Source: a virus
Taxonomy: Duplodnaviria; Caudoviricetes
DNA: 28,304 nucleotides
Strand: one strand, 5' to 3'
Virus record (IMG/VR): IMGVR_UViG_3300008266_001072
Coordinates: 1 to 28,304 of that record
How positions within the stretch are numbered: the stretch's first letter is position 1; every line of letters begins with the position of its first letter. A program made the translations under genes and the position numbers. Below the pieces are notes generated by a model that was not told the DNA's origin, did not search any database, and saw nothing but the letters and a program-made list of their open reading frames with translations. Shown piece after piece: positions 1 through 28,304 of the stretch.

Positions 1-1
1 C

Positions 2-3000
2 ACCCAGCGCCAGGCCAGCGTCGACCAGAACCTGGCCAAGGTGCAGGAGCTGCACGACACGCTCGGCCCGGCAGGCATGCGCGAGACGCTGCTGCAAGAG
101 CTGACGGTGTCGGACCTGAAGAAGAAGGCCGCGGCGCTCGGTGTTGAGTTCTCCACCAGCTACAAGGCCGACGTCAAGCTGCCGCTGGCCGCCGTCATCT
201 TCGGCCCGAAGCTCGGGGCCTTCTACGCCAACCTGATGGGCGCGGACGGCTACCTGACGATGGACCGCTGGTGGTCGCGCACCTTCAACCGCTACCGAGG
301 CACCCTGCTGCAGAAGCCGACCGCGCAGGGCATGGCCCGCTTCCGCGAGCTGCTGGGCCAACCGAACCTGTCGGACGACGAGACCCTGGCCGCGGCGGTC
401 GGGCCTCGCAACGCCTACGCGGCGCGCGGCTACAAGAACCCCTCCGAGATCGAGGCCGCAGCGAACACGCTTTACAAGGCCGCCTTCGAGAACATCGAGG
501 ACAAGCCCTTCAACGCCTCCGACCGCAGTTTCATGCTGGACACGGTCGCCCAGGCGCGGGCTACGCTCAAGCGCCAAGGCGTTGAGATCAGTGTGGCGGA
601 CATTCAGGCCGTCCTGTGGTACTATGAGAAGCGCCTGTACGGAGAGCTGGGCGCTCGTCAAACAGCGGATGTGAGTTATGAAGAAGCAGCCCAACGTGTC
701 GTCGCTGAAGGAACCGCGGATGTTGGAGCCCTCGGACCCGATCTGGGAGGCGACTGGGAAGCTGCCGCTGAACAGTCTGATCCCGGCGCTCTCGCCTACA
801 ACCAAGGCCCCGTCGCCCGCAGCGTAGACGCCTACTTCTCCCTGGAGAACATCGGCTCGCTGCTGGAGAAAGACGACTGGACGATCCTCACGGCAGAGAA
901 CCCGATGGGCCAGCAGGCCACGCCGGAGGAGAACGCCAAGGCCCAGGCCAAGCTGGTCGCTGACCTCGACGCGCTGGGCGTCGACTACCAGCCGTCGATT
1001 GGCCGCTACGGCCAGATCGAGAACTCGTTCGTGGTCGTCGGGATCACCGAGAAGCAAGCCCGCGATCTGGGCGCGAAGTACGATCAGGACAGCGTGCTGA
1101 CCCGCAAGGGTCTGATCTACCAGGACGGGCGGGTCGACGCCGCCGTCGGCCTCACGGTCCACGACACCCGCCCCGAGGACTACTTCACCGAGGTGCCCGG
1201 CACCGGCGCGCTGTTCACGGTGGACCTGGACTTCGGCGAACAGACCGAAACCTTCAACCAGTCCGACCCCTTCTACTCGGCGCTCGAACGCGCTGTGGCT
1301 GGCAGCCCCCTGACCAAAGCGCCAGCGGCGCAGTGGATGGCGACGCTCTCCAAGACGCCCGGCGTCAAGAAGGAAGAGATCGAGATCACGGGGCTGAACG
1401 ACTGGCTTGATGCGCTGGCCGATCCAGACCCGCTCGCGCAGACTTTCGCGCTCGAAGCTGGCCAGGTCGATGCAAAGGGCAACGTCTCGAAGGAGACGGT
1501 GCTCGCCTTCGTGCAGTCCGGCGGGGTGCGGCTGGAGGAGACGGTTCTTGGTGAGCCTGATCCCGACGCGGACGCCGAGATCGACCGGCTGGTCGAGAAA
1601 AGCCAGCAGCGCGTGCGCGAGGAGGCTATGGCCAACCCCGCTTATGGCGCAACCGAGAGCCGCGATGGAAGCGGCTGGACGATATACAACCGCGCCAACT
1701 ACATAGAGTGGAGCGAGCGGTTCCAAACCGAGGCCGAGGCCGAGGCGTTTGCGGAGCGGGCGAACCGCCTCCAGCTCGAAGAACGTCTCGCCGAGAACGA
1801 GGGCTATGCCCGCCGGACCTACGTCGAGGACGCAAGGAACAGGAACCCGCTCGGCACCCGGTTTACCGACTACACCATCAAGGGCGCGGTCCCCGGATCG
1901 CAGCGCGAGTTTCTCGTGCGCCTGCCCGTCTTCAAGGGTAACACATTCGACAGCTCGGAACATCACTTCGAGGGCATAAACGACATCATTGGACACTTCC
2001 GCGCGTCCGAACACGCCGCCGCGAACGGTAAGAAAACGATGGTGCTGGACGAGGTCCAGTCGACCCACCACGCGATGGGCGAGGCCGACGGCTACGCGAT
2101 CTCTGCCGACCCGGCGACGCTGGCTGCGCTTCAGGAAGCCTACAACGCCGCGTTGGAGGCGCAGCGCGCCTCGTGGCCGCCGACGGTGGACGCCGCGCTC
2201 CGGGCGCTTGGGCAGCATCTGGAGCGGTATCGGGGGAACCCCGGCGTCGAGGAGGCGACCCAGCGCACCCTCGACGATCTCAATGACCGCAACAACCGCA
2301 ACCCGTCGTCGGCCGCGATCTACGCCTACAACGTCCTGAACGCCCACAGCTCGCTGCTCGACGACGAGGCGCGCGTGGCGATGAACGCCTATAGCAATGC
2401 CCGCCTGCGCACCACCGAGGCGGCGGGCGCGTTGCTCGCGGCCCAAGGCCAAGGCGTTGCCGACGCCCCTTGGAAGAAGAGCTGGGACGCCCTGCTGATG
2501 AAGCGGGCTATCCGCTACGCTGTGGACAACGGCTTCGAGCAGATCGCCTGGATCAACGGCAACCAGCAGAACGGCGGGCTGACCGGCGGCGACGGCTCGT
2601 GGTTCTACGAGCGCAACCTGGTCAACGTGACCAACGACATCGTCAAGAAGTTCGGCACCAAGGTCGGCAAGGTGGATATGATCCGCAACGAGCCGGGCTC
2701 GCCTCGTCGCGACCTGATGGAGTTCGTCGCGGAAGTCGACGCCCGAGGAGAAAACTCGGGCTACGGCACCCTCGCGGAGTTCCAACGCCCCGCCAACAAG
2801 CTCGGCATCCAGAACGGCTTCGAGATCACGCCGCAACTGGCCGAGGCTGCCCGCAAGGGCTTCGCCCTGTTCCAACCGAACCGTGGCCAGATCGCCTTCG
2901 GCCAGGACATCACCCAGACCCCGTCGGTCATCAGCCTGCTGCGCGCCGCCGACCTCTCGACCTTCATCCACGAAACCGGGCACTTCTTCCTCGAAGCCAC

Positions 3001-6000
3001 GGCCGACATGGCCAACGCCACCGACGCCCCGGCCGACATCGTCGCCGACATGGCCACCGTCCTGAACTGGATGCGGCCGGGCATGACGCTCGCCGACTGG
3101 AACGTCATGTCGCTCGAAGAGCGCAGGCCCTTCCACGAGAAGTGGGCGCGCGGCTTCGAGGCCTACCACTTCGGGGGGCGCAGCCCCAGCCTCGCCCTGC
3201 GCGACGTGTTCCGCCGCTTCTCGGCCTGGCTCAAGAACGTCTACAAATCCCTGACCGCCCTCGACGTCGAGCTGACCGACGAGGTCCGTCAGGTCATGGA
3301 CCGGATGCTGGCCACCGAGGCCGAGATCACCGAGATGGAACAGGCCCGTGGCCTGACGCCAGCCTTCACCAACAAGCCCGAGTTCGCCAGCGACGACGAG
3401 TGGGAAGAGTACCAGCGGCTGGCAGGCGACGCCACGGCCGAAGCCATCGAGCAGCTCGAGCAGCGCAGCGCGCGTGACATGCGCTGGGCCTCCGGTGCCA
3501 AGGACCGCTACCTGCGGTCGCTGCAGCGCGAAGGCGAAGAGCAGCGCAAGGCTGTCCGCGCCGAGGTCACCGCCGAAGTCATGGCCGAGCCCGTCAACCG
3601 GGCCCGCGCTTTCCTGCGCCGCGGCCTGGGCGAGAACGGCGAGCCGGTCGAAGGTGCAGCGAAGCTGGACCTGGCCACCCTCAAGTCGCTCTACGGCGAC
3701 GAGGGCACCTGGACCGGCCTGCGCCGTGGCGGCAAGTACGGGGAGGTCAGCACCGACGGCCTGCACCCCGACGCCGTCGCCAGCATGTTCGGCTACACCA
3801 ACGGCCAGGCCCTGATCGAAGACATGGTCAACGGCGAAGACAGCGCCGACAAGATCAAGGGCCTGACCGACCAGCGCATGCTCGAGCGTTACGGCGACCT
3901 GTCCGACGCGCAGTCCATCGAGCGCGCCGCCAACGAGGCCGTCGCCAACGAGGCCCGGGCCAAGTTCGTCGCCGCCGAGATGGCGATGGCTGACAAGGCC
4001 ATCGGCAAGAAGTCGATCCTGAACAGCGCGGCCAAGGAGTTCGCGGCCTCGGTCGTCAACCGGCTCGAGCTGAAGCGTCTGCGCCCGGCGCAGTACCTCG
4101 CCGCCCAAGGCCGCGCCGCCAAGGCCGCCGAGAAGGCGCTCAAGGGCGACGACCTGCCCGGCTTCGCCACGGCCAAACGCAACCAGCTCGTCAACCTGCA
4201 CACCGGCCGCGCAGTCCAGCAGGCGCAGAAAGACGTCGAGAAGACGATGCGGTTGTTCACGCGGATCGTGAGCGCCAAGGACGACAGCATCTCGAAGTCG
4301 CGCAACATGGACCTGGTCAACGCCGCACGCGCGGTGCTGTCCTCCTACGGCGTCGGCCGCGTCAAGAACGACCCGGCGGGCTACATGCGCGCCCTGTCGC
4401 AGTACGACCCGACGCTCTACGCCGACATCGAACCCTTCGTGAACGGTGCCAGGGGCGACGCCAAGCCCATCGTCGACCTGACCTACGAACAGTTCACCGC
4501 GCTGCGCGATACCGTCAACCAGCTCTGGGCTCTGTCGCGCCGCACCAAGCAGATCGAGATCGACGGCAAGCTCATGGACCGCGAAGTGGTCACCACCGAG
4601 CTGGGCCTGCGCCTCGACGAGATCGGCATCCCCGCCCAGGCTGGCGTCGACCGCGCGCCGACGGATCGCGACAACCGCGTCCGTGACCTGCTCGGCGCTC
4701 GCGCCGCGCTGCGCCGCGTGGAGAGCTGGGCCCGGGGTACGGACGGTGCGAACTCGGGGCCGTTCCGCAAATATATCTGGAACCCGATCTCGGTCGCCGC
4801 CGACGCCTACCGCGCCGAGAGCGGCGTCTACATCCGCCGCTTCCGCGAGCTGCTCGACGGCATGCGCGACGAGCTGAAGCCGGTCGACATCAAGGCCCCC
4901 GAGATCGGCTACACCTTCGGCGGCAAGTCCGAACTGTTCCATGCCCTGCTGCACACCGGCAACGGCTCGAACAAGTCCAAGCTCCTGCTCGGCAGGAACT
5001 GGGGCAAGAAGAACGCTGACGGCTCGCTCGACGACACCCGCTGGCAGTCGTTCGTCGACCGCCTGCACACCGAGGGCGTGCTGACCCAGAAGGACTGGAC
5101 CTTTGTCCAAGCCGTGTGGGACTTGCTCGAAGAGACCAAGCCCGGCGCGCAGAAAGCTCACCGCGCAATCTACGGCCGGTACTTCGACGAGGTCAGCGCC
5201 GACCCGGTCGACACCCCTTTCGGCCAGCTGCGCGGCGGCTACGTCCCTGCGATGACGGACGGCTTCCTGGTTCAGGACGCCGCTCTGCGCGCCGAGCAGG
5301 AGGCCATCGAAGGCGGCGACAGCGCCATGTTCCCGGCGGCCTCGAACGGCTTCACCAAGTCGCGCGTCGAGGACTACACCCGCGAGCTGGCGCTGGACCT
5401 GCGCCTGCTGCCGATGCACATCGACAAGGTGCTGAAGTTCACGCACCTGGGCCCGCCCGTCCGCGACGTCGCCCGCATCCTGAAAGACCGGGGCTTCTCC
5501 AAGAAGCTGCAGGCCTACGACCCGACGGCCCAGACCGACTTGCTGCTGCCTTGGCTGCAGCGTGCCGCCAAGCAGCTGGTCGAGACCCCGTCGAAGGGCC
5601 GCGCCGGTAAGGCAGCCGACCGCTTCTTCAGCGCCGTGCGCAGCCGCGTCGGCATGCAACTGATGTTCGCCAACGTCGTGAACACGGCGCAGCAGGTCAC
5701 CGGCTTCTCGAACGTGCTGCTGCGTGTCGACGCCCCGATCCTGGGCGACGCTCTGTGGCGCTACGTCCGCGACCCCAAGGGCGTCGCCGAAGCCGCCGCC
5801 AGCCAGTCGGTCTTCCTGGCCAACCGCATGTCCTCGGACATCTTCGAGGCGCGCCAGACCATCGCGCAACTCACCAAGCTGGACCCGTCGAAGACGGACG
5901 AGGCCGTGGCCTTCCTGCAGCGCAACGCCTACTTCATGCAGTCGGCGGTGCAGAACGTCATGGACGTCATCAGCTGGACCGCGGCCTTCAACCAGGCTTC

Positions 6001-6736
6001 CGGTAAGGGCGAGAGCGACCGCGACGCCGCGCGCTTCGCCGACAGCGTGATCCGCGAGACCCAGGGTACGATGGCCCCGGAGGATGTCTCGCGCTTCGAG
6101 ACGGGCCCGGCGTTCATCCGCGTGTTCACGCAGTTCGCTGGCTACTTCAACATGATGGCGAACCTGAACGCCACCGAGGTGCAGCTGGTCGCCCGTGACG
6201 CCGGTCTCAAGAAGGGCATGGGCCGCCTGTTCTACGTCTACCTGATGGGCTTCGCGGTCCCCGCCCTGATCGGCGACGCCATCGCCAAGGCGCTGCGCGG
6301 CGGCTGGGAAGACGAAGAGGGCGACGGCTATCTCGACGACCTGTTCGCCTGGTTCTTCTCGTCGCAGGCCAAGTTCGCTCTGGCCGCCGTGCCGGTCGTG
6401 GGCCAGGCCGCCAACGCCGCGCTGGGCGCGTTCACGAAGCTGCCCTACGACGACCGCATCTCGATGTCGCCCGCGGTGTCGGTGATCGAGAGCGGCCTGG
6501 GCACCCCGGCCGAGGTCTACCAGAGCTTGGTCGACGGCGAGAGCTTCAACCGCGCCGACACGCGCGACGCCCTGAACCTGCTCGGCGTCCTGACCGGCAC
6601 GCCCATCGGCGCGCTGGCCAAGCCCCTGGGCTACGGCGTCGGCGTCGCGCAAGGCGACATCGAGCCGACCGGCCCGCTGGACGCAGCGCGCGGCGTCATC
6701 ACCGGAGCGCCCTCGCCAGAGAGCAGGATGCAGTGA
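2..6736 (+). CDS. Giant polyvalent internal virion (ejection) protein, 5'-truncated by the window (>2240 aa)
   Basis: The frame is open from position 2, upstream of the 41 GTG, and the gene lies just before the tail spike as in APSE/BPP-1-like podoviruses. Motifs: GPKLGAFYANL..TMDRWW..ADIQAVLWY (HhH-glycosylase-like), ILTAENP..YDQDSVL (DUF3293-like), FYSALERAV..GVKKEEI and LDEVQS (polyvalent-protein domains), HETGH..HEKWARGFEAY (zincin-like), then a long helical C-terminus. Confidence 0.85.
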   Translation, partial: TQRQASVDQNLAKVQELHDTLGPAGMRETLLQELTVSDLKKKAAALGVEFSTSYKADVKLPLAAVIFGPKLGAFYANLMGADGYLTMDRWWSRTFNRYRGTLLQKPTAQGMARFRELLGQPNLSDDETLAAAVGPRNAYAARGYKNPSEIEAAANTLYKAAFENIEDKPFNASDRSFMLDTVAQARATLKRQGVEISVADIQAVLWYYEKRLYGELGARQTADVSYEEAAQRVVAEGTADVGALGPDLGGDWEAAAEQSDPGALAYNQGPVARSVDAYFSLENIGSLLEKDDWTILTAENPMGQQATPEENAKAQAKLVADLDALGVDYQPSIGRYGQIENSFVVVGITEKQARDLGAKYDQDSVLTRKGLIYQDGRVDAAVGLTVHDTRPEDYFTEVPGTGALFTVDLDFGEQTETFNQSDPFYSALERAVAGSPLTKAPAAQWMATLSKTPGVKKEEIEITGLNDWLDALADPDPLAQTFALEAGQVDAKGNVSKETVLAFVQSGGVRLEETVLGEPDPDADAEIDRLVEKSQQRVREEAMANPAYGATESRDGSGWTIYNRANYIEWSERFQTEAEAEAFAERANRLQLEERLAENEGYARRTYVEDARNRNPLGTRFTDYTIKGAVPGSQREFLVRLPVFKGNTFDSSEHHFEGINDIIGHFRASEHAAANGKKTMVLDEVQSTHHAMGEADGYAISADPATLAALQEAYNAALEAQRASWPPTVDAALRALGQHLERYRGNPGVEEATQRTLDDLNDRNNRNPSSAAIYAYNVLNAHSSLLDDEARVAMNAYSNARLRTTEAAGALLAAQGQGVADAPWKKSWDALLMKRAIRYAVDNGFEQIAWINGNQQNGGLTGGDGSWFYERNLVNVTNDIVKKFGTKVGKVDMIRNEPGSPRRDLMEFVAEVDARGENSGYGTLAEFQRPANKLGIQNGFEITPQLAEAARKGFALFQPNRGQIAFGQDITQTPSVISLLRAADLSTFIHETGHFFLEATADMANATDAPADIVADMATVLNWMRPGMTLADWNVMSLEERRPFHEKWARGFEAYHFGGRSPSLALRDVFRRFSAWLKNVYKSLTALDVELTDEVRQVMDRMLATEAEITEMEQARGLTPAFTNKPEFASDDEWEEYQRLAGDATAEAIEQLEQRSARDMRWASGAKDRYLRSLQREGEEQRKAVRAEVTAEVMAEPVNRARAFLRRGLGENGEPVEGAAKLDLATLKSLYGDEGTWTGLRRGGKYGEVSTDGLHPDAVASMFGYTNGQALIEDMVNGEDSADKIKGLTDQRMLERYGDLSDAQSIERAANEAVANEARAKFVAAEMAMADKAIGKKSILNSAAKEFAASVVNRLELKRLRPAQYLAAQGRAAKAAEKALKGDDLPGFATAKRNQLVNLHTGRAVQQAQKDVEKTMRLFTRIVSAKDDSISKSRNMDLVNAARAVLSSYGVGRVKNDPAGYMRALSQYDPTLYADIEPFVNGARGDAKPIVDLTYEQFTALRDTVNQLWALSRRTKQIEIDGKLMDREVVTTELGLRLDEIGIPAQAGVDRAPTDRDNRVRDLLGARAALRRVESWARGTDGANSGPFRKYIWNPISVAADAYRAESGVYIRRFRELLDGMRDELKPVDIKAPEIGYTFGGKSELFHALLHTGNGSNKSKLLLGRNWGKKNADGSLDDTRWQSFVDRLHTEGVLTQKDWTFVQAVWDLLEETKPGAQKAHRAIYGRYFDEVSADPVDTPFGQLRGGYVPAMTDGFLVQDAALRAEQEAIEGGDSAMFPAASNGFTKSRVEDYTRELALDLRLLPMHIDKVLKFTHLGPPVRDVARILKDRGFSKKLQAYDPTAQTDLLLPWLQRAAKQLVETPSKGRAGKAADRFFSAVRSRVGMQLMFANVVNTAQQVTGFSNVLLRVDAPILGDALWRYVRDPKGVAEAAASQSVFLANRMSSDIFEARQTIAQLTKLDPSKTDEAVAFLQRNAYFMQSAVQNVMDVISWTAAFNQASGKGESDRDAARFADSVIRETQGTMAPEDVSRFETGPAFIRVFTQFAGYFNMMANLNATEVQLVARDAGLKKGMGRLFYVYLMGFAVPALIGDAIAKALRGGWEDEEGDGYLDDLFAWFFSSQAKFALAAVPVVGQAANAALGAFTKLPYDDRISMSPAVSVIESGLGTPAEVYQSLVDGESFNRADTRDALNLLGVLTGTPIGALAKPLGYGVGVAQGDIEPTGPLDAARGVITGAPSPESRMQ

Positions 6737-6744
6737 CCTTTTCG

Positions 6745-11909: not shown

Positions 11910-12185
11910 CTAGATCAAACCCAAAGCTGACAGATAGAGATCGAGGATCGCCTCTTCCTCTTGGCGCTTGGCCTTGTCCATCTTGCTGATGCGAAGCACC
12001 TTGCGCAGGGTCTTCACGTCATAGCCCTCGCCCTTGGCCTCGGCGAAGACCTCCTTCATGTCGGCCATCACGGCGGCCTTGTCCTCGTCGAGACGCTCGA
12101 GGCGCTCAATGATGCCGCGCAGGCGGCCCTGCGCGTTGTCGTTCAGCACGTCGGGGCTGGCGTCGAAGTATGCGTCGTCGGTCAT
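11910..12185 (-). CDS. gapR: GapR-like nucleoid-associated protein (DUF2312), 91 aa
   Basis: Start re-called at ATG 12185 with GAGGA RBS. MTDDAYFDASPDVLNDNAQGRLRGIIERLERLDEDKAAVMADMKEVFAEAKGEGYDVKTLRKVLRISKMDKAKRQEEEAILDLYLSALG closely follows the Caulobacteraceae GapR pattern. Confidence 0.92.
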   Translation of the reverse strand: MTDDAYFDASPDVLNDNAQGRLRGIIERLERLDEDKAAVMADMKEVFAEAKGEGYDVKTLRKVLRISKMDKAKRQEEEAILDLYLSALGLI

Positions 12186-13597
12186 GTGTTCCTCTTCATG
12201 GCGTCGAGCATGATCTGCTGGACGCTCCTCTTGGTGTTGAGCCGCTCTAGTTTCAGTTCGTCCACAGTCCCCGCGGCGACAAGGTAGTGGACGAATACGC
12301 GCCGGTTCTTTCCGGCCTGCTGTTGGCGCATGGGGCCCACGCGCTCGATGATCTGGTCGTGCTCTTCGAGGTTCCAATCGAGCGAGAAGAACGCCAGCTC
12401 GTGGCTGTGCTCCTGCAGCCCGTCTACCCCGTGGCCCAGAGAGGCCGGGTGCGCAAACCAAACTCGGCCCTCGCCTGCCTTAGCGCGGCGCAAGCCAACT
12501 GGCGTCGACAGGTCGATGCCGTTGGGGAAGGTGCGCTGGAGCCGTTCGAGATCGTGCCGCCAGTTGTAGGCGACAAGCACGGGAGCACCGGCCGCTTCCT
12601 CGATGATGCTCCCCAGGGCCACCAGCTTGACGTCATGAACCTCATGCCACTTCCTTTCTTCCTCGTTGTCGTAAACCGCGCCCGACGCCAGCTGCCCGCA
12701 TTTGCCCGTGCGCGCCGCGGCGTTCGCCGCCTCGATGCCGACCGCCTTGATCTCGGTCCACATCTTGCGCTCCATCTCGCGGTACTGCGCCCGGGCCTTA
12801 GCTGGCAGCTCGACGTAAATCACGTTCTTGACGTGATCCTCCACGTCGACCTCGGTGGTCAGGCAGATGTCGCGGATCGCCGTCTCGATCTGCTCCTGCG
12901 CGAAGGGCAGCGGGTCGATGCTGAAGCCGTCGAACGACTTCTGGAACCACCGCTCCTTGAAGCTCTCGAACGTGCGGCCCAGACGCTGGCCAGCGTCGAG
13001 AAACCAGCCCTGGCCCCAGAGGTCTTGCAGCCCGTTCGGCGACGGCGTGCCCGTCAGGTTGATCCAGCGCGGCGTGCGGTGGGCGACGCGCCCTAGGGCC
13101 CTGGCCCTGGTCGAGCCGCCGCCCTGGTAATAGGTCTTGCCGGTGGTCGGGTGCGTGCGGAAGCCGCCACGGAAGCTCTTCAGCTTGGTGCTCTCGTCGG
13201 CGATCACCATGCCGAAGGGCCAGTCGCCGTCGAGCTTCTCGAGCAGCCACGGCAGGTTCTCGTAGTTGATCGTGGCCAGAGGCGAGCCGCCCCTTCGCAC
13301 ACGGCCGAGAGCTGCCAGCCGTTCGGCAGGCGTGCCGAGGATCGTGTCGACCTGCCACCCCGCGCAGAAGTCCCACTTCTTGACCTCGTCGGGCCAGGTG
13401 TGCTCGGCCACCCGCTTCGGCGCGATGACCAGCGCCGGTCGCGTGACCTCGCCGCAGAGGTGGAGCAGGTCGAGGGCGGCCAACGTGGCCGAGGTCTTGC
13501 CCGTGCCCATCCCCGCCCACTGACCGGCGCGCACGACCTCGCAGGCGTGGTCGATCATAGCCGGTTGCCAGGGCCTGGGGACGTACTCACGGGACAA
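12182..13597 (-). CDS. SNF2-family (SF2) helicase
   Basis: MGTGKT Walker A, LVIAP, INYE, VIADES, LTGTP, HPASLGHGVDGLQ, QIIERVG motifs, as in APSE-like phage helicases. Confidence 0.93.
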   Translation of the reverse strand: MSREYVPRPWQPAMIDHACEVVRAGQWAGMGTGKTSATLAALDLLHLCGEVTRPALVIAPKRVAEHTWPDEVKKWDFCAGWQVDTILGTPAERLAALGRVRRGGSPLATINYENLPWLLEKLDGDWPFGMVIADESTKLKSFRGGFRTHPTTGKTYYQGGGSTRARALGRVAHRTPRWINLTGTPSPNGLQDLWGQGWFLDAGQRLGRTFESFKERWFQKSFDGFSIDPLPFAQEQIETAIRDICLTTEVDVEDHVKNVIYVELPAKARAQYREMERKMWTEIKAVGIEAANAAARTGKCGQLASGAVYDNEEERKWHEVHDVKLVALGSIIEEAAGAPVLVAYNWRHDLERLQRTFPNGIDLSTPVGLRRAKAGEGRVWFAHPASLGHGVDGLQEHSHELAFFSLDWNLEEHDQIIERVGPMRQQQAGKNRRVFVHYLVAAGTVDELKLERLNTKRSVQQIMLDAMKRNT

Positions 13598-13841
13598 GGC
13601 GCAGGCCCCAAGGATCGGGGAACTGGTTATTCAGCACGCCTGGCTCACCTGCCCGGCGCAACGCGCCGATGACCGAGTTGCGGGTGCGGCCCAGTATCCC
13701 GGCGATGTACGCCGCGCTGCGACCGGCACGCCGGTGGCGTATGGCCCGGGCCAACTCTGCGGCGGTCCAGGTTTTGTGGGCGATGCTGCCGCCCGTCGGC
13801 TTCGGGGCGCGGCGCTCTCGGATTTGGTGGTAAGGGTTCAC
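13587..13841 (-). CDS. GcrA-like helix-turn-helix protein (N-terminal DNA-binding domain only), 84 aa
   Basis: WTAAELARAIRHRRAGRSAAYIAGILGRTRNSVIGALRR matches the GcrA N-terminal pattern WT..W..G.SASQIA..LG.VTRNAVIGKVHR. GTG start with GAGGAGAGG RBS. Confidence 0.75.
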   Translation of the reverse strand: MNPYHQIRERRAPKPTGGSIAHKTWTAAELARAIRHRRAGRSAAYIAGILGRTRNSVIGALRRAGEPGVLNNQFPDPWGLRLVP

Positions 13842-14149
13842 TGTGTCCTCTCCTCAATGTAATCGTCGACTGCCTCGATGCTGTCGAGGGTGAAGACCGC
13901 GCAGCCCAGGCTGCGCAGCTTGGCGTGCTCCCGCTCCTGATGCGGATCGGGCTTCTTGCCGGGGGCCTTCAGCTCGACGAAATGAACCTTCGCGGCGATG
14001 AGCGGAACGCCGTACTGCTGGGGGCCTTGAGGCCAGATCACCAACCGATCCGGCGCGCCGCGGTGCCCCGGCCAGACCATCTTCCTGACCAGCGCCCCGG
14101 CGGCTGTCGCCTTCTTGCGCAGGTGCATCTCGACTGTGCTCTCACGCAT
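13838..14149 (-). CDS. VRR-NUC domain nuclease (Holliday junction resolvase-like)
   Basis: Start re-called at ATG 14149 (TGATG overlap). MRESTVE..GAPDRLV..FVELKAPGKKP..Q PD-(D/E)XK motif. Confidence 0.92.
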   Translation of the reverse strand: MRESTVEMHLRKKATAAGALVRKMVWPGHRGAPDRLVIWPQGPQQYGVPLIAAKVHFVELKAPGKKPDPHQEREHAKLRSLGCAVFTLDSIEAVDDYIEERTQ

Positions 14150-14679
14150 CAGATGTGCTTCCATGTTCGCCGGGTGCGGATGCCCCAGACGTGCGCAGGG
14201 TGGACGTTGTAAAGCGTGGCCACCGTGATGTGGTCGAGTTTTAGGGCGCGAATGTTACGCACGTCGTTCTCGGTCAGCTTCGCCATGCCGTGGCGCGAAC
14301 CTCTCGGTCTGACGTCGTTCACGATGCTATCTGCCGCATTGTCCTTGTGCGTTCCGTAGCAGAGATTGGCCAGTCGGTTATCGCCCTTCCGGTCGTTCAA
14401 GTGGCGCGCGACCTGCCCGTCAGGTTTTGGGCCGACGAAGGTAGCGAGCACCAGATCGTGGATCGTATGCTGCTGGCGTTTGCCTTCTCCCGCCAAGGTG
14501 ACGACGTGGTAGCCGTTGCCCTTGACGGCTGGTTGGAGAATGCGCCCGCGCCGGATCGCCTCCCCGAGCCCGCCCTTCCCGGCAGCGACGTATCGGTCCT
14601 TCGAGCGCACTCGGCCACGGTCGCTGACCTCGTAATAGTCACCTTCCCAGCCTTCGATCTTGCGCCACTGTTCTCTCAT
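14149..14679 (-). CDS. NUMOD4-HNH homing endonuclease, free-standing
   Basis: EQWRKIEGWEG.YEVSDRGRVRS (NUMOD4), HDLVLATFVGP..RHLNDRKGDNRLANLCYGT..N (HNH), and a C-terminal AKLTENDVRNIR HTH-like tail. Confidence 0.93.
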   Translation of the reverse strand: MREQWRKIEGWEGDYYEVSDRGRVRSKDRYVAAGKGGLGEAIRRGRILQPAVKGNGYHVVTLAGEGKRQQHTIHDLVLATFVGPKPDGQVARHLNDRKGDNRLANLCYGTHKDNAADSIVNDVRPRGSRHGMAKLTENDVRNIRALKLDHITVATLYNVHPAHVWGIRTRRTWKHI

Positions 14680-16585
14680 TTTTGGTATCTAGCGCCTTCC
14701 CAACCAGCCGCTGCCAGAGGCAGGCCTTGTGCCCACGGGGGGACCGTGGTCATTATTGAGGAGAGACGATCAACCGTAAACTGGTCACTGTCAATAGGCT
14801 CCGTGACCAGCTCGTCGTGACAAGTTAAAATAATAGGGAACCCGGCCGCCTCGGCCTCGGCCATGTTGTGCGCCAGCACGTCGCGAGCCCCGCCCTGCGT
14901 GGCGTTCTCGATCAGCTTGCCGCCGTAGGTGTGCAGCCGCTCCCATTTCCGCAACGGCCAGAGGGGAGGCGCATGCGCAGCCAGCTGCCGTCGCGTTGGA
15001 AGACGAGCTTGCCACCGGCCGCCTCGACCCGCAGGCCCGGTTGCTCTGCGGCGCGGATCGCGGCGCGCTCGGTCTCGTACCACAGCTCGACGATGTGCTT
15101 GTTCTTCTTGCGCCAGGCCTTCACGATCTCGAGCGCCCGGGCGTCGGACATCTCCAGCCCGTAGATGCGGGCCATCGCCTGGAACGCGCCGACGGCACCT
15201 TGGTAACCGCAGGCCAGCTCGGGCACCTTGCCCTGCGCCTGGCGTTGGTCGGCCGTGACCTGGTCGATAGGTATGTTCAGCACCTCGGACGCGCCGACGT
15301 AGTAGAGGTCGGGGCCGGTGCCTGCGTCGTAGTCCCTGAACGCGCGGAGCTTCCACTCTTCGCCTGCCAGCCAGGCCAGGAACCGGCCTTCGATGTTGGC
15401 CAGGTCGGAGGACACCATCTTCTTGCCGGGCCCGACGGTCAGCGCGCCGCGCGTGCAGTTGGCGGCGGTGTTCATGACGTTGTCGTAGACCAGGTCCGCG
15501 CAGTCCGCGAGGAAGGCTTCGATGGCGTCGAGGATGGCCTGTTGCTTCAGCGTCGGGCGCATCAGGTTCTGGGGCTGGAAGAGGCGGCCAGCCCAGCGGC
15601 CGGTGCGCGCAGCGCCACAGAACTGCAGCGTGCCGCGCAGCCGCCCGTCGCTCGACGTCCCCCGCAGGAGCGTCTTGTACTTGGCGGTCGACGACACCGT
15701 GGCCATGAGCCTGATGCGGAGCAGGTGTTTAACCGGCTCTGGCAGGTTCTCGTCGGCCAGTCGCCGCTCGAGCGTGCCCTTCTGCATGTCGGGCAGGTCG
15801 ACGCCGAACTCGCCGAGCAGGTACTTCAGGAAGGCGTCGCGCTGGGTGGTGCTCTCGAGCCCCTGCCCCGTCTCCGGGTCGAAGCCGGTCAGCTCCTGGG
15901 TCTTCGCCTTCAGCCCCTTCTTGGCCAGGTCCGTGGCGCGCACGGCGGCCTCTGCCAGGGCCAGGTCGACGGCCACGCCCCTGTCGTTGATCTTCTGGTC
16001 GAGCACCCACAGGTCACGCTCGCGCTGGTTCCCGGGGTAGTTCCACTTGGGCAGGCGCTTGCGCACCTCGCGCATCGACAGGATGTCGGACCCCGCGTAG
16101 TCGAGGAACCGCTGCCACTCAACGGGGTGGGTCTCGCGCGTCGCGCGCCTGACCTTGGAACTCTGGGGCCTGGGTTTGCAGAAGAGCTGGACCAGCTGCT
16201 TGCCCGCCTTGTCCTTGGCAAGGTCGGTCGGCACGCCCAACACCGAGCACAGCTTGTCGAGGGAGCCGGGAAGGCCGTGGGCGAGGGCCTGGACCATCGT
16301 GTCCACGACCTTCTCGACCGGCATCTCGTAGCCCCATGCGTGGCGCAGGACGGTGCGGTCGAAGGCAGAGTTCTGCCAGACCTGCTCGTCGGCGGCGTCG
16401 GCGGCGGCCAGGGCCACCTTGACCTTGTCCTCCCAGCCGGGCCTGGTGCAGTCGATGACCTCGACTGGGCCTTCGTCAATAGCCCAGGCCAGGACCGTGA
16501 TCTCGACCTTCTCTGCGTAGCGGTGCAGGCCGTGGGCGAGGGGCGTTTCGCAGTAGGTTTCCGTATCGCCAAAAAAGGTGGTCAA
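14676..16585 (-). CDS. Family A DNA polymerase (APSE-type), interrupted by an apparent deletion/frameshift at about 14952
   Basis: TTG start at 16585 (TTGA overlap, GAGGGA RBS). The first frame has the Exo motifs DTETY, NSAFDR and YAGSD, then GAARTGRWAG, motif A DLANIEGR and motif B RQAQGKVPELACGY. RKWERLHTYGGKLIENATQ and motif C TCHDE lie in a different frame that ends at 14676. Confidence 0.9.
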
Positions 16586-20277: not shown

Positions 20278-20462
20278 GCGAGCCACCAGACGGCCAGGGC
20301 GACCTCGAGGCACACGCCCGCCACCAGGATGGCGAAGAGGACGCCCGAGAAGAGTTCGGTGCTCAAGTTCCTGTCGGAGGCGAAGCGATACCACTCGCCC
20401 ATAGACAGGAGGTTGGCCAGGAAGACCACGAGCATGGCCAGCGTGAAGAGAGCGTCGCGCAT
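20274..20462 (-). CDS. Small 2-TM membrane protein, 62 aa
   Basis: Start re-called at ATG 20462 (MRDALFTLAMLVVFLANLL..). TGATG coupling; two hydrophobic segments. Confidence 0.65.
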   Translation of the reverse strand: MRDALFTLAMLVVFLANLLSMGEWYRFASDRNLSTELFSGVLFAILVAGVCLEVALAVWWLA

Positions 20463-20806
20463 CAGAGCATGTCCCCTTCTGCGTTGATGAAGTGGACCAC
20501 GCCACCGGCCAGCTGGATCATGACGCAGGCCTGGCGGGCCCGACGGCAGGCTTCGGCCGCGATCTGCACCAGCACCCGACCGTCGCCAGCGCCGGTGGTC
20601 ATGGCGATCTCGTACTTCAGGCTGTCGTCGTTGACGATCTCGCCGTCCCCGTTGCGCCAAGCGCCGGTCACGAGGGTCTGGGTGTAGCCGCCGAAGTTGT
20701 CGAGGATATCCCCGCGCAGGGCGGCGTGGGTTTCGGTGAGGCGGTTGCCGTCGTTGTCCCGCAGCGGCAGGATCAGGAAGGCAATGCGCTTGGAGAAGTC
20801 GGTCAT
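20462..20806 (-). CDS. Candidate SAM lyase (SAMase)/DUF3574-like protein, 114 aa
   Basis: FGGYTQTLVTGAW..EIVNDDSLKYEI..LVQIAAEACRRARQACVMI resembles the G.T..G.W/Y..E..A..ACxxxxQxCV pattern of T3-type SAM lyases. AAGGA RBS. Confidence 0.55.
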   Translation of the reverse strand: MTDFSKRIAFLILPLRDNDGNRLTETHAALRGDILDNFGGYTQTLVTGAWRNGDGEIVNDDSLKYEIAMTTGAGDGRVLVQIAAEACRRARQACVMIQLAGGVVHFINAEGDML

Positions 20807-20817
20807 GGTCTCTGTCC

Positions 20818-20985
20818 TTATTGGGTGCAGATGCCCGCGGAGATCAGGCTGGCTGCGGTTCGGCCGTAGTGGCCCTGGAGGGACCAGGCGGCCCCTGTGT
20901 CGATCAGGTTCTGGAAGAAGTCAACCATCTGGTCCTCTTCCATCTCGCCTTGCTCGTAGGAGATGATGTCGTCGATGCTGGGCAT
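20818..20985 (-). CDS. Conserved small phage protein, 55 aa (MPSIDDIISYEQGEMEEDQMVDFFQNLIDTGAAWSLQGHYGRTAASLISAGICTQ)
   Basis: Not in the ORF track; translated by hand. TGATG coupling at 20985, and the FQxLIDxGxAWxLQGHYGRxA motif is a recurrent phage pattern. Confidence 0.75.
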   Translation of the reverse strand: MPSIDDIISYEQGEMEEDQMVDFFQNLIDTGAAWSLQGHYGRTAASLISAGICTQ

Positions 20986-21194
20986 CAGCCGAACTCCACG
21001 GGGTTCAGCTCGGCACCTGCGGCGGCGCGCTGGTAGCCCAAGAGGACCAGCAGGCGGTCGAGGCCGCGGCCGCGAATATACCCGCCCTCCCAGCCCTTCG
21101 GGCCGTTGAAAGTGTAGCGGACTTCGTACAGCCCGTTGTCGAGGTTGCGGGCCGGGAACTCGCGCCCCTCAAACGTGACGGTGGTGGTAGCCAT
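20985..21194 (-). CDS. Hypothetical early protein, 69 aa
   Basis: First gene after the leftward promoter; AGAAGGACAAGAGAC-ATG leader. Confidence 0.7.
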   Translation of the reverse strand: MATTTVTFEGREFPARNLDNGLYEVRYTFNGPKGWEGGYIRGRGLDRLLVLLGYQRAAAGAELNPVEFG

Positions 21195-21239
21195 GTCTCT
21201 TGTCCTTCTGCCGCAGCGGCTTGTCCCGGCTGCCCACCC

Positions 21240-21268
21240 TCTCTAGGCCTGTCCGAAATAGGTGTCAA
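21240..21268 (-). promoter_or_regulatory. Leftward sigma70-type promoter TTGACA-N17-TAGAGA
   Basis: Perfect -35 (21268-21263), 17-nt spacer, -10-like TAGAGA (21245-21240), at the head of the minus-strand arm. Confidence 0.7.
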
Positions 21269-21305
21269 GCGTTTGGTTGTGAAAAATATGCATGTGAGAA
21301 AATGC

Positions 21306-21334
21306 TTGTACAACGCCTGGGCCGGGTATAGAGA
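21306..21334 (+). promoter_or_regulatory. Rightward sigma70-type promoter TTGTAC-N17-TAGAGA
   Basis: Mirror image of the leftward promoter, at the head of the plus-strand early genes. Confidence 0.6.
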
Positions 21335-21377
21335 GAGAGCCCGTCGGGACAAGCCGACACCGAAAAGGACTGAGACA

Positions 21378-21575
21378 ATGATCGACATGCAAGACCCCCG
21401 TGACCACCGCCGCGTCGCGGCCATGATGACTGACCACGGTTCATCGCGCGGCTGGGACTTCCGCCCCTCCGACGAGCCTCCGATGTGGCTCCGCGCCGTG
21501 GCCGAGGTTCTTCGTCCTCGCAGCCTCATCATTCTGGCCGTGCTGGCCGGGGTTATCAGCTTGTGGTGGTTGTGA
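21378..21575 (+). CDS. Hypothetical early protein with C-terminal TM, 65 aa
   Basis: Start re-called at ATG 21378 after AAGGACTGAGAC; hydrophobic tail LIILAVLAGVISLWWL. Confidence 0.7.
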   Translation: MIDMQDPRDHRRVAAMMTDHGSSRGWDFRPSDEPPMWLRAVAEVLRPRSLIILAVLAGVISLWWL

Positions 21576-22173: not shown

Positions 22174-22823
22174 GCGAGAGAGATCACCCGGTATCGGCGC
22201 TCCGAACACACGTCCCCGATTTGGAGCGATTGGCTTACAACCAAAAGCCAAAGACGCGCGACTGGACATACCTTCGCCTGCTTCAATACGATGAAACCGA
22301 CCTGTTCCAGTGGTTTGGAAAACGAAACGGCTCCTGTTTTGAGGACCAAGCGTCCGAACCGTTTCGCATCCCCGCCCGCCGCACCCCTGCACCAGAGGGG
22401 GAGGCTTGGCGGCACGTCTCGCAAGAGGAAATGGCGCAGGCTGCAAAGTTCGCATCCAACAACCTCGCATCCCCTGTCGTTCCTGTGATGAGAGCCGCTC
22501 TCCGGCAACGCTACGAACTCCCCACTGATATGGGGGCGGTTGTAGCGCGGCTTGAGGTGTCGGCAAGCGACCCTGCTCCGTGGCCGGACCTCCGCGCCCT
22601 CCTGAAAGCATACCAAGAGCAGCGCCGGGCTTTGCGAGAGGCGGCGGAGTATCTGTGCCGCCTTGAGGGCGCGCTCTTGGCTGACGACCTCGATATGCGC
22701 CTGAACTTCCCCGACGAGCCGTCTCCGACCGCGATGGCTGAACGCATCCTGCCGGGCTTTGACAGCATTGAATACGACCTCGCCCGAGCCGCCCTCAACC
22801 AGAAAGGCAAGAGCCATGACTGA
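22170..22823 (+). CDS. Hypothetical mosaic protein, 217 aa
   Basis: ATGA coupling. Shares RTPAPEGEAWR with the Lar ORF and ELPxDMxAVV/RALLxAYQE with the previous ORF. Confidence 0.65.
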   Translation: MSERDHPVSALRTHVPDLERLAYNQKPKTRDWTYLRLLQYDETDLFQWFGKRNGSCFEDQASEPFRIPARRTPAPEGEAWRHVSQEEMAQAAKFASNNLASPVVPVMRAALRQRYELPTDMGAVVARLEVSASDPAPWPDLRALLKAYQEQRRALREAAEYLCRLEGALLADDLDMRLNFPDEPSPTAMAERILPGFDSIEYDLARAALNQKGKSHD

Positions 22824-22995
22824 GAAACTGAAGGCTTGTCCGTTCTGCGGGGGTGAGGCCCGCACCTTTGAATACGACGGGGCCAATCAGGCGACCTGCG
22901 GAGGAAAACACATTGACTGCGCGGGAACTGACGTTGTGGCCCCTGTCGCTATGTGGAACCACCGCACCCCTGCACCAGAGGGGGAGGCTTGGCGG
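22379..22995 (+). repeat. 34-bp exact direct repeat (22379-22412 and 22962-22995)
   Basis: CCGCACCCCTGCACCAGAGGGGGAGGCTTGGCGG occurs twice and encodes RTPAPEGEAWR in both ORFs. Confidence 0.9.
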
Positions 22996-23265
22996 ACTGT
23001 TCCGGTAGAGCCGACAAAGGCGATGCAGAACGAAGGCGTGAACGCTGCGTCCGATCATTTTGGATGGGCCGATGAAGGGCAGATCAAAACCATCCTGGCC
23101 GGAGGATGGTTGCGCGAGGCGGGCGCTTATGGCGGTCGCGTAACAGCGACTTTGGATGCGGCCAACAAAACCCAAGCCGCCCTTACAGGAGAAGACGCAC
23201 CCGGTTTACCGACAAGCCAGAACACTGAGCCAGGCTTGCCGTTTTCCGACGCGGGCGAACCCTAA
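22816..23265 (+). CDS. Lar-family restriction alleviation protein with C-terminal extension, 149 aa
   Basis: Start re-called at ATG 22816. MTEKLKACPFCGGEA..C.....C..WNHR is the Lar-type zinc-finger pattern, followed by VPVEPTKAM. Confidence 0.75.
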   Translation: MTEKLKACPFCGGEARTFEYDGANQATCGGKHIDCAGTDVVAPVAMWNHRTPAPEGEAWRTVPVEPTKAMQNEGVNAASDHFGWADEGQIKTILAGGWLREAGAYGGRVTATLDAANKTQAALTGEDAPGLPTSQNTEPGLPFSDAGEP

Positions 23266-23306
23266 ACGCAAAAGGCCCGCCGCCCCGGTGAAGGGACGAC
23301 GGGCCT
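23264..23306 (-). terminator. Intrinsic terminator on the minus strand
   Basis: Minus-strand AGGCCCGTCGTCCC-TTCACC-GGGGCGGCGGGCCT forms 14 bp with two G-U pairs and is followed by TTTGCGTTT. Confidence 0.6.
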
Positions 23307-23421
23307 GATGCAATAAAAATACGCAAAAAGTGCTTAGGGGTATTGCGTAACATCTGCCTATGTGCGAGAACCAGTCATCGGCGCAGGGCAATCAAGCACT
23401 AGCCGGAACGGAACCACACAG

Positions 23422-23655
23422 ATGACCACCACCTATCGCACCGACTGGATGGACCACGACGACGCGGTTCAAGTTCAGCACTATCCGCTCCACATGGGCG
23501 ACAAGGGCCAATTGACCGCAGCGCGCCTGACCGCTCGTCAAATGAGCAAGCGCCACGGGGGGGCTTACGTCATAAAAACGGTGGATGGGCAAGACGTGGC
23601 CCAGCTCTGCTACACGAATGGTCGCGCTTGCCCTCATGGATGGGACGCCGGATGA
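23422..23655 (+). CDS. Hypothetical protein, 77 aa
   Basis: Start re-called at ATG 23422 (MTTTYRTDW..). Follows an AT-rich promoter-like gap; ATGA coupling downstream. Confidence 0.6.
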   Translation: MTTTYRTDWMDHDDAVQVQHYPLHMGDKGQLTAARLTARQMSKRHGGAYVIKTVDGQDVAQLCYTNGRACPHGWDAG

Positions 23656-23747
23656 CTGTCGAGTTTGCCGCCGTGGCCGCTGGTGTGATAGCGACCTTGG
23701 TGGCGGTCGTGTTGCTCACCGTGCTATTTTATGAGCCAAACAAATGA
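23652..23747 (+). CDS. Small single-TM peptide, 31 aa (MTVEFAAVAAGVIATLVAVVLLTVLFYEPNK)
   Basis: Not in the ORF track; ATGA overlaps at both ends. Confidence 0.5.
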   Translation: MTVEFAAVAAGVIATLVAVVLLTVLFYEPNK

Positions 23748-23941
23748 CCCCCGCTGAATACCGCACCGCTCTCGCAACCCTCGGCCTGTCGCAACTCGCG
23801 GCGGGCCGGTGGCTTATGGTCAGCCCGAAGACCGCACAGAACTACGCCACGGTCGGCCCCAGCGGTCCTGCGGCACGGGCCATGCGGATGCTGCTGGATA
23901 TGAACGAGGCCGACCGGGCGAAGGCTCTGGCGGCGGAATAG
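23744..23941 (+). CDS. Small XRE-type HTH protein, 65 aa
   Basis: MTPAEYRTALATLGLSQLAAGRWLMVSPKTAQNY helix-turn-helix pattern. Confidence 0.75.
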   Translation: MTPAEYRTALATLGLSQLAAGRWLMVSPKTAQNYATVGPSGPAARAMRMLLDMNEADRAKALAAE

Positions 23942-23945
23942 GACA

Positions 23946-24170
23946 ATGACACAACGATCTACCCCCTCCGTGCGAGAGCACATCGCCCAGGCCATCACCC
24001 TGGCCGGTGGTCAGGTGAAGCTGGCGGCCCTCCTCGGCGTCACGCAGCAGGCCGTCAGCGGCTGGCTAAATGGTGCCCGCTGGATGCCCGTGCGCCGCGC
24101 CCAGGCCATCCACGAGCGGCTCGGCGTGCCCGCCGCGAACCTGGTCAACCCAGAGAAGGTGCTGGGATAG
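23946..24170 (+). CDS. Cro-like (YdaS-type) HTH regulator, 74 aa
   Basis: AITLAGGQVKLAALLGVTQQAVSGWL..P..RA..I; AGGA RBS; immediately upstream of the primase as in related phages. Confidence 0.85.
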   Translation: MTQRSTPSVREHIAQAITLAGGQVKLAALLGVTQQAVSGWLNGARWMPVRRAQAIHERLGVPAANLVNPEKVLG

Positions 24171-24171
24171 C

Positions 24172-26376: not shown

Positions 26377-26379
26377 AAC

Positions 26380-26665
26380 GGTTACGACCTCGACGCCAAG
26401 TTACGACCAGTTACGACCTCACGGCGGAGGTCGTAACCCCCGCCAGCAGGGCGTTTGAGGGGGCGGTTACAACCTCTACACTACTTTCTTAAGGGGAGAG
26501 GTAGAGTAGTAGTATAGGGGCCCCGTAGAGGGCCCTGGGGAAAGGTTAGGCGAAAAGTTCTGTAACCGCCGAAAAACAAGCATTTTGAGCCCGTATTCAG
26601 TCGTAAAAACAACAGCTTATTCGGTTACAACGTAGGTCGTAACCGGTCGTAACCAGGTCGCAACC
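26380..26665. repeat. Iteron-like GGTTAC(G/A)ACC repeats, probable replication origin
   Basis: Forward copies at 26380, 26400, 26409, 26465 and 26623; inverted copies at 26429, 26635, 26645 and 26656. They surround an AT-richer core right after the primase stop. Confidence 0.75.
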
Positions 26666-26683
26666 GGCAGGAGCACGTAAAAA

Positions 26684-26860
26684 ATGGCACGTTTGGGTGA
26701 GAAGCACCACGACGCGAAGCTGACCAACGCAGAGGTCGAGCTGATGCGGTCGATGTATGAGGAGGGCGGCTGGAGCTATGGCACGCTCGCCCAGAAGTTC
26801 GATGTCCACAAGGCGACGGTCGCCGACATCATCACATTCAGGATCAGGAAACAGGGATGA
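26684..26860 (+). CDS. Small HTH DNA-binding protein, 58 aa (MARLGEKHHDAKLTNAEVELMRSMYEEGGWSYGTLAQKFDVHKATVADIITFRIRKQG)
   Basis: Not in the ORF track; AGGAG RBS; AKLT..V..R..SYxxLAxKFxV..TV..I HTH pattern. Confidence 0.8.
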   Translation: MARLGEKHHDAKLTNAEVELMRSMYEEGGWSYGTLAQKFDVHKATVADIITFRIRKQG

Positions 26861-26880
26861 GGGGTACGACCGAAACTGTC

Positions 26881-26912
26881 GTATGGCTTGCGGCGGACCG
26901 CGCGCGTAGTCT
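26881..26912 (+). promoter_or_regulatory. Putative phage late promoter GTATGGCT-N18-TAGTCT
   Basis: Upstream of terS; matches the motif at 6745-6776. Confidence 0.5.
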
Positions 26913-26922
26913 CACCTGAACC

Positions 26923-27453
26923 ATGACCCGTCCCTTGCTCAACATCCCGACGGCCAAGTACGACCCCGCGAAGGCGGCCCGCATTTGCGAGCTGCTGTCG
27001 CAGGGCATCACCCTGGCCCAGATACTGCGGGACTACGACGATCTGCCCTCGCGCTGGTCGATCCACCGCTGGATGGCCTCGAACCCCGAGTTCAAGACCG
27101 CCTACGAGATGGCTCGCGACGTGGGCTACGACGCCATCGCCGACGAGATTGTGAACATCGCCGAGGACGGCTCGGCCGACTGGGTCGTGCGCAAGAACCG
27201 CAACGGCGAAGAATACACCGTGGTGGACGCAGAGGCGGTGGCCCGTTCCAAGCTGCGGGTCTACGCCCGCGAGAAGCTGCTGGCCGCGTGGTCGCCCCGC
27301 TACCGCCCGCAGTCGGGTATCCAGCTGTCGAACCCAGAGGGCGGCCCCGTCGAGTTCACCGACGCCGCCGCCTCGGCCAAGATCGCCTCGTTGCTGGCGC
27401 TGGCCCAGGCCCGGGCAGACGGTGCGCCCGAAGACGGCTCAGACCTCGCGTGA
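26923..27453 (+). CDS. terS: Terminase small subunit (Sf6-like)
   Basis: ICELLSQGITL..LPSRWSIHRW..F..AYEMAR..DAIADEIVNIAED..ARSKLRV..R..PRY; directly precedes the large terminase. Confidence 0.88.
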   Translation: MTRPLLNIPTAKYDPAKAARICELLSQGITLAQILRDYDDLPSRWSIHRWMASNPEFKTAYEMARDVGYDAIADEIVNIAEDGSADWVVRKNRNGEEYTVVDAEAVARSKLRVYAREKLLAAWSPRYRPQSGIQLSNPEGGPVEFTDAAASAKIASLLALAQARADGAPEDGSDLA

Positions 27454-28304
27454 GGCCCCCCTCGGTCGCCGAGGTCCAGAAGCTGCTGCCCCACCTCACC
27501 GAGGCAGAGAGGCGCGAGCTGTTCGCCCTGTTGGCCCGGGACAAGAAACGCTGGCGGCCCCTGCCCGGGCCACAGACCGACGCCTACCAGAGCACGGCGG
27601 ACATCATCGGCTACGGTGGTGCTGCAGGCGGCGGCAAGACCGACCTGGCCTGCGGTAAGAGCATCGAGGACCACCGCAAGATCATGATCCTGCGTCGCGT
27701 CGGCACAGAGCTGTCCGCCATCGAGGACAGGCTCGAAGAGCTGTTCGGCACCAAGGACGGATACAACTCGACCAAGGGCATCTGGCGGCAGACGCGCAGC
27801 GACGGCAAGGCCCTGCAGATCGAGCTGGGCTCTGTGCCCAACGCTGGGGACGAGAAGAAGTACCAGGGGCGGCCGCACGACCTGATCGTGTTCGACGAGG
27901 CTGCCAACTTCCTCGAGCTGCAGGTGCGCTTCCTCCTGGGCTGGCTGCGCACCACGGTGGTCGGCCAACGCTGCCAGGCACTCCTGACCTTCAACCCGCC
28001 CACCAGCGCAGAGGGCCGCTGGATCGTGGACTTCTTCGCCCCCTGGCTCGACGACAAGCACCCCAACCCCGCCGTGCCCGGCGAGCTGCGCTGGTTCGCC
28101 ACCGTCGCTGGCAATGACCTCGAGGTCGACAGCGGCGAGCCCTTCGTCATCGCTGACGGAGAGCCGCAGTACGACTTCAACCCCGACGACTACGCAGAGA
28201 GCCCAGACCTGGTCATCCAGCCCATGTCTCGGACCTTCATCCCCTCGCGAGTGCGAGACAACCCCTTCCTCACCGGGACCGGCTACATGAGCACGCTACA
28301 GGCG
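27450..28304 (+). CDS. terL: Terminase large subunit, 3'-truncated by the window
   Basis: Not in the ORF track because it has no stop. GTG 27450 (GTGA overlap); PLPGPQ, YGGAAGGGKT Walker A, KYQGRPHDLIVFDEAANF Walker B, LLTFNPP motif III, SRTFIPS..DNPFL. Confidence 0.95.
   Translation, partial: MRPPSVAEVQKLLPHLTEAERRELFALLARDKKRWRPLPGPQTDAYQSTADIIGYGGAAGGGKTDLACGKSIEDHRKIMILRRVGTELSAIEDRLEELFGTKDGYNSTKGIWRQTRSDGKALQIELGSVPNAGDEKKYQGRPHDLIVFDEAANFLELQVRFLLGWLRTTVVGQRCQALLTFNPPTSAEGRWIVDFFAPWLDDKHPNPAVPGELRWFATVAGNDLEVDSGEPFVIADGEPQYDFNPDDYAESPDLVIQPMSRTFIPSRVRDNPFLTGTGYMSTLQA

Follow-up and report, generated by a model that had tools for sequence, protein, structure and literature searches.

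The 28,304-nt stretch examined here (IMG/VR virus record IMGVR_UViG_3300008266_001072, positions 1..28304, referred to at its full length as the window) is, judging by its gene content, a partial genome of a BPP-1/Jess A-like podophage, 63% complete according to CheckV, and it is devoid of GANTC, the methylation site of CcrM. The exact count over all 28,304 bases is 0 for each of the four variants, GAATC, GACTC, GAGTC and GATTC, as the manual scan of the initial annotation had suggested. The GC content is 65.7%, close to the two-thirds estimated there, and the several tens of sites anticipated from composition are likewise recovered, the nulls ranging from 29 to ~126. Dinucleotide shuffles of the window (n = 100) give 125.7 ± 10.2 expected sites, a trinucleotide Markov chain gives 68, and the most conservative null, a 4-mer Markov model, gives 29. 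Synonymous-codon shuffles (n = 1000; 33 open reading frames (ORFs), 8614 codons) give 36.5 ± 4.6 with a minimum of 23, and the Poisson probability of zero sites on this codon null is ~1e-16. At the rate of 1.47 per kb found in 80 chromosomal loci of the likely host group, Brevundimonas, which is suggested by the GapR gene alone, the window would hold 41.5 sites. The observed zero is therefore near neither the host nor the shuffled frequency, and it lies far under the depletion of the host itself, which upholds the strong selection proposed earlier. Words one mismatch away from GANTC occur at 0.72–1.52 of expectation. No reading other than selection against the word GANTC fits; the site is rarer than composition and codon usage allow, as in restriction-site avoidance, and the absence of all four variants, in coding and non-coding DNA alike, fits a cost exacted per site.

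The coding sequences bear the mark of this selection. In all 31 Asp-Ser and Glu-Ser pairs of the window the serine codon is AGC or AGT, as noted in the initial annotation, whereas TCN is used for 268 of the 377 other serine codons. These dipeptides are themselves under-represented (31 vs 52 expected, P ~0.001), and selection therefore acts at the protein level too, at an amino-acid cost.

GANTC is also nearly absent from the relatives of the window. Record G001, which represents the same phage, has 0 sites in 40,476 nt, and its relative G002 has 1 in 44,262 nt; further records of the clade contain 1 (G003), 5 (G004), 0 (G005), 1 (G007), 0 (G009) and 3 (G010), and 14 close loci have 0–3 each. 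More distant DUF2800 loci (n = 65) span 0.11–1.15 of the half-site expectation, with a few depleted too.

GANTC is one among about ten palindromes purged from the window, the others having been overlooked in the initial annotation; about nine others are reduced to 0 or 1 copy. GGCGCC, CGATCG, RGATCY, GAGCTC, AGCGCT and CCATGG each occur 0 times, and GCCGGC and AATT once each, every one of these counts lying below the lowest of 1000 codon shuffles. Within the clade, GANTC, GGCGCC and GAGCTC are low throughout and the other palindromes vary: GCCGGC occurs once in G001 and 65 times in G002, CGATCG 18 times in G009 and RGATCY 20 times in G005. This loss of several palindromes, patchy among relatives, is the pattern of restriction-site avoidance. 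The earlier claim of a purge holds, but the purge is less singular than it appeared, being part of a broad loss of restriction sites, and GANTC depletion in alphaproteobacterial phages has been published (PMC9516812). Avoidance of the HaeII-type site RGCGCY was considered and rejected, 60 of 93 sites being retained.

For two of the purged palindromes, like-named enzyme families are encoded in 4–8% of Brevundimonas genomes. NaeI-family genes were found in 7 and BglII-family genes in 12 of 151 Brevundimonas-group genus genomes, and we take these families, from their names alone, to cut GCCGGC and RGATCY, respectively. A methylase gene adjoins the nuclease gene in all eight BglII- and NaeI-family loci opened, and solitary nucleases were rejected on this ground. 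The Brevundimonas BglII-family genes (L459–L464) show two layouts, one next to a methylase with a DPPW motif and the other a divergent pair adjoining a C5 methylase. Table 1 of PMC7987155 assigns GANTC, AATT and GGCGCC in B. subvibrioides to methylases that lack a partner nuclease, the activity at GGCGCC being predicted and not detected in that report; all three sites are purged in the window.

Loss of GANTC recurs in unrelated phages. Among 22 cultured phages, a hand-picked and non-random sample of 40–80 kb each, the observed/expected counts are 0/131 for Caulobacter phage Percy and 1/96 for Caulobacter phage Jess A (45 kb), and Atu_ph02 stands at 0.13 of expectation. Most of the other sampled phages fall at 0.19–0.6 (BcepC6B, 0.60), and Cr30, Gurke, StAshley, OC and BPP-1 (0.72 for the last) at 0.7–0.9. 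Four unrelated uncultured records, whole or nearly so, are also depleted (G826 4/122, G827 4/106, G828 0/152, G829 7/100), with GGCGCC retained in three of them. Two further phages have lost half of the site only: Strzyga (whole genome; loci L158, L449, L159 and L450) has GAWTC at 0/106 and GASTC at 118/163, and S2B (L140, L141 and L169) has them at 0/40 and 33/92. Phage Sansa leans in the same direction (12/116 vs 76/120).

Viral loci that carry GapR or GcrA genes were compared on the same ratio; they are partly redundant, and their counts are not independent. Among 74 GapR-carrying viral loci of at least 8 kb, all 12 from the clade of the window lie at or below 0.07; the remaining 62 have a median of 0.38, with five at or below 0.05. 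None of the GcrA-carrying viral loci (73 of 80) is at or below 0.05. No gene common to the independent purged lineages was found in the partial 10–20-kb loci compared except GapR, the search bait, and the proposal of one shared gene was set aside. One GapR-carrying viral locus, L385 (18.4 kb, GC 70%), is the opposite of the window, with GANTC enriched (51 vs 22 expected) and no GGCGCC.

The explanation favoured here, with moderate confidence, is that the clade has purged GANTC and some nine palindromes owing to nucleases of Brevundimonas-type hosts that would cut unmethylated sites, the putative GANTC enzyme being sheltered by CcrM. A CcrM-bearing alphaproteobacterial host, as assumed in the initial annotation, is supported by the GapR match and by a CcrM-family gene in five of five host-group genomes. 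In such a host, the simplest agent would be a nuclease specific for unmethylated GANTC (or GAWTC); with CcrM already guarding the chromosome, it could dispense with a dedicated methylase. A shielding of restriction enzymes by orphan CcrM has been proposed (PMC3488263). Phage DNA would exit the cell mostly unmethylated, because CcrM acts late in the cell cycle (PMC9516812), and a phage S-adenosylmethionine (SAM) lyase might reduce methylation further. Every GANTC would then be a cut site in hosts carrying the enzyme, and purging would be an alternative to carrying a CcrM-mimic methylase. GANTC methylases are encoded by other alphaproteobacterial phages (PMC5537653, PMC7139368), and the N6/N4-methylase profile PF01555 is unmatched in all seven clade records searched, a profile that also missed the known phiLM21 enzyme. 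The agent is presumably host-side and acts on each site: the purge in unrelated phages without a common candidate gene, together with the GAWTC-only losses, points to a sequence-specific cutter of the host that is sheltered by CcrM. The loss of GAWTC with retention of GASTC in Strzyga and S2B is consistent with an enzyme that is more selective than CcrM at the middle base. A wider scenario is offered tentatively, in which an undescribed family of methylase-free defence nucleases of Caulobacteraceae, specific for GANTC or GAWTC and using CcrM methylation as the self signal, would be strong and common enough to have purged at least six unrelated phage lineages; the clade of the window would respond by purging its sites, draining SAM and jamming GcrA promoters by means of its truncated GcrA.

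Several observations weigh against a CcrM-sheltered host nuclease. Many same-host phages retain GANTC at or above the host level (phiCbK 0.34, Gurke 0.72, StAshley 0.84). In G827 and G829, two records classed as proviruses, GANTC is strongly depleted and GGCGCC kept, although integrated DNA should be methylated by CcrM. Host-group loci themselves have a median of 0.49 of the expected GANTC (71 of the 80 loci, those of at least 8 kb, all around gapR), so a cost that involves no nuclease exists. Known GANTC-type nucleases were not found in the four families searched, a set that does not include the HhaII, HpyAIV and TfiI types: the HinfI family (NF045831) gave 0 matches in 301 Caulobacteraceae-level genomes, with no positive control matched, and in 251 genus genomes there were none for the TdeIII family (PF09520), the AlwI family (PF09491; no positive control matched) or MutH (PF02976; E. 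coli control matched). The SAM-lyase step is weak, with no match in Jess A or Percy.

Two sets of candidate loci were examined and discarded. The three PF09520 matches in 301 class-level genomes come from genomes of 1.4–1.9 Mb, and two of them lie behind a long ORF with merely a short CcrM match. Of 23 plasmid-borne CcrM copies, the two opened lie beside ribonuclease HII in an ordinary chromosomal-type setting where no restriction enzyme is annotated. In addition, the loci of G827 and G829 (L442–L443 and L447–L448) gave no match to the integrase profile PF00589.

The initial annotation had suggested a GANTC-directed reader or nuclease, either host- or phage-encoded. In its general form this proposal stands, with no enzyme found in the families searched, while its GcrA and phage-encoded branches are weakened by what follows. 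A rather unlikely alternative is that the cost arises from the host CcrM/GcrA system itself, in which methylated phage sites would recruit GcrA-RNA polymerase, or some other reader of the methyl mark, so that transcription misfires or replication is hindered. Methylated GANTC is indeed read by GcrA (PMC5887438), hosts are about two-fold depleted without a known nuclease (PMC8919816), the two proviruses are depleted fairly specifically, and the four-family search for a cognate nuclease was negative. However, GcrA favours the subset YGAKTCG and acts near promoters, yet sites deep within ORFs have been lost at an amino-acid cost, and the host tolerates ~1.5 GANTC per kb. Moreover, a GAWTC-only purge fits neither CcrM nor GcrA, and the other lost palindromes are left unexplained.

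An improbable alternative assigns the purge to a truncated GcrA of the phage, which would bind at methylated promoters of the host and halt its cell cycle, GANTC being removed to spare the phage's own DNA. The ORF in question (13587..13841, minus strand, 84 amino acids) encodes a homologue of the stand-alone GcrA DNA-binding domain. Its family profile matches PDB 5yiu (E 6.6e-7), and it retains the equivalents of R33, N34, I37, G38 and R42, with which GcrA reads the bases and the methyl mark (PMC5887438). The ORF thus resembles Caulobacter GcrA (PF07750, PDB 5yiu) and phiCbK GcrA in its three-helix DNA-binding domain and methyl-pocket residues. It differs from them in its length, in the replacement of K39, which is required in GcrA, by Ala, and in the lack of the C-terminal sigma-70-interacting domain, since it stops ~20 residues past the helix-turn-helix. 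A GcrA without this domain cannot activate, and the protein may jam host promoters. A match to the domain profile is found in seven of eight clade records, the window ORF itself falling under Pfam detection, and an N-terminal GcrA match also occurs in the unrelated purged record G826. Nevertheless, Percy, Jess A, G827, G828 and G829 are purged without a GcrA-family match, GANTC persists in RW and Gurke, both with an N-terminal GcrA match, and the absence of strong purging among the GcrA-carrying viral loci described above weakens this branch further. In G002, the GcrA-like ORF (L083, 12372–12719, minus strand) has two tandem helix-turn-helix matches, the second of which exceeds the Pfam GcrA cut-off.

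Even less probable is a phage-encoded GANTC-specific nuclease that degrades the host chromosome, with the phage avoiding self-cleavage. Such self-avoidance would fit a total purge, and three nucleases are present in the window: a VRR-NUC-type endonuclease (13838..14164, minus strand), a NUMOD4-HNH endonuclease (14149..14679, minus strand) and DUF2800. However, VRR-NUC and DUF2800 are also present in the unpurged phages BPP-1, BcepC6B and RW, and the HNH enzyme is matched in just two of seven clade records. No nuclease candidate is common to the independent purged lineages in the partial loci, and the VRR-NUC and HNH enzymes were both rejected as the GANTC agent. Finally, composition, codon bias, mutation pressure, chance or an assembly artefact, for which the already depleted host DNA and one deletion in the window's polymerase gene that resembles an assembly error could be invoked, is ruled out by the codon shuffles (0/1000 under 23), by the agreement of independent assemblies and diverged relatives, and by the near-normal frequency of the one-mismatch neighbour words.

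With regard to the SAM lyase that might lower methylation of the phage DNA, the ORF at 20462..20806 (minus strand, 114 amino acids) is a weak candidate, and it may encode such an enzyme. It scores 17.8 bits against PF23780 (phage SAM lyase), under the curated cut-off of 28, and a precomputed PF23780 hit is present in 11 of 26 of its homologues. Invariant G48, W50 and Q92 and near-invariant D60/D61 are possible counterparts, by eye only, of Svi3-3 G56, E69 and Q104. PDB searches with the candidate gave nothing significant, and its Atlas matches are nameless, one having DUF3574 on 12% of its members. For comparison, the T3 SAMase keeps T3 DNA unmethylated (PMC8406200). A second SAM-lyase-like domain (DUF3293, plus strand) lies near bases 890–1110 of the window, inside a giant, probably virion, protein, the C-terminal part of which is encoded at 2..6736 (plus strand; a 3178-amino-acid frame in G001). 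A SAM-degrading domain, if injected with the virion, would be unusual. Neither the GcrA-like domain nor the SAM-lyase candidate is needed for purging in other phages.

GANTC depletion in alphaproteobacterial phages is already known, and the window is a strong but expected footprint of it. About half of 33 pelagiphages and a GANTC-poor provirus of 'Ca. Pelagibacter giovannonii' NP1 are depleted, with no host nuclease found and the cause left open in the account given in PMC9516812. The host class is likewise of the CcrM type, and the depletion is clade-structured. The phage of the window differs from these in its likely Brevundimonas host, its GC content of 66%, a loss that is total in 40 kb, the loss of about nine other palindromes, and the fact that cultured phages of a genetic model host share its loss of GANTC. 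Counter-selection of GATC by MutH in enterobacterial phages (cited in PMC4687349) is similar in that the site of a housekeeping methylase is shed alongside Type II sites; however, no MutH-family nickase gene is matched in the 251 Brevundimonas-group genomes, and the agent must therefore differ from MutH. The CcrM-mimic methylases of phiLM21, Paracoccus prophages and vB_OspM_OC (PMC5537653, PMC7139368) are also responses of alphaproteobacterial phages to the GANTC mark, but there the site is methylated and kept (LM21 0.25, OC 0.89), whereas the phage of the window has no PF01555 match and removes it. No paper on a GANTC purge in Caulobacter or Brevundimonas phages was found in the literature searched, subscription papers and supplements lying outside its scope. 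CcrM is regarded as a regulator of the cell cycle that has no partner nuclease; a nuclease sheltered by it, if real, would connect anti-phage defence with the cell-cycle methylome, and new enzymes would be predicted. Since Percy and Jess A, two cultured phages of Caulobacter, show the GANTC loss and S2B and Strzyga a loss of GAWTC alone, the proposal is testable with the ccrM and gcrA mutants of a genetic model host.

As for the identity of the phage, the window contains a BPP-1-like gene set (giant virion protein, tail, lysis genes, SNF2 helicase, PolA, SSB, DUF2800, primase-helicase and terminase) and the Rauchvirus/BPP-1-like markers PolA, DUF2800, SNF2 helicase, terminase, portal, capsid and giant virion protein. 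The nearest cultured phages are Bordetella phage BPP-1 and Jess A (Rauchvirus in its record), with 31–63% protein identity and the same gene set and order. BPP-1 differs in keeping GANTC, and Jess A in keeping AATT, RGATCY and GCCGGC and in having no match to the GcrA-like domain or the SAM-lyase candidate. At the nucleotide level, only short blocks of 64–72% identity are shared with Jess A, genus-level identity with Rauchvirus is not reached, and the sole megablast hit of the window is the GapR gene in phage Gurke. The host marker is the GapR (DUF2312) homologue at 11910..12185 (minus strand, 91 amino acids), which is 81–89% identical to chromosomal GapR of the Brevundimonas group; most of its best 80 chromosomal loci are titled Brevundimonas. 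Phage-borne GapR is common, with 107 matching records in the cultured-phage collection. No prophage of the clade above 38% identity was found in 251 genus genomes, and an integrase match is absent in G002 (96% complete); a lytic life is therefore likely.

The PolA gene (14676–16583, minus strand) is frameshifted at 14951 by a ~67-base deletion that is absent from G001, L002 and the other aligned relatives, and is likely an assembly error or a private mutation of the window contig. A promoter scan of 20700–21500 found none. The segment 21378–23941 (plus strand) is variable and made up of small genes that are mostly missing from relatives, among them an ORF (22816..23265, plus strand) with a weak match to the Lar restriction-alleviation zinc finger (PF14354, E 0.00078, under the cut-off); like the core, this block contains no GANTC.

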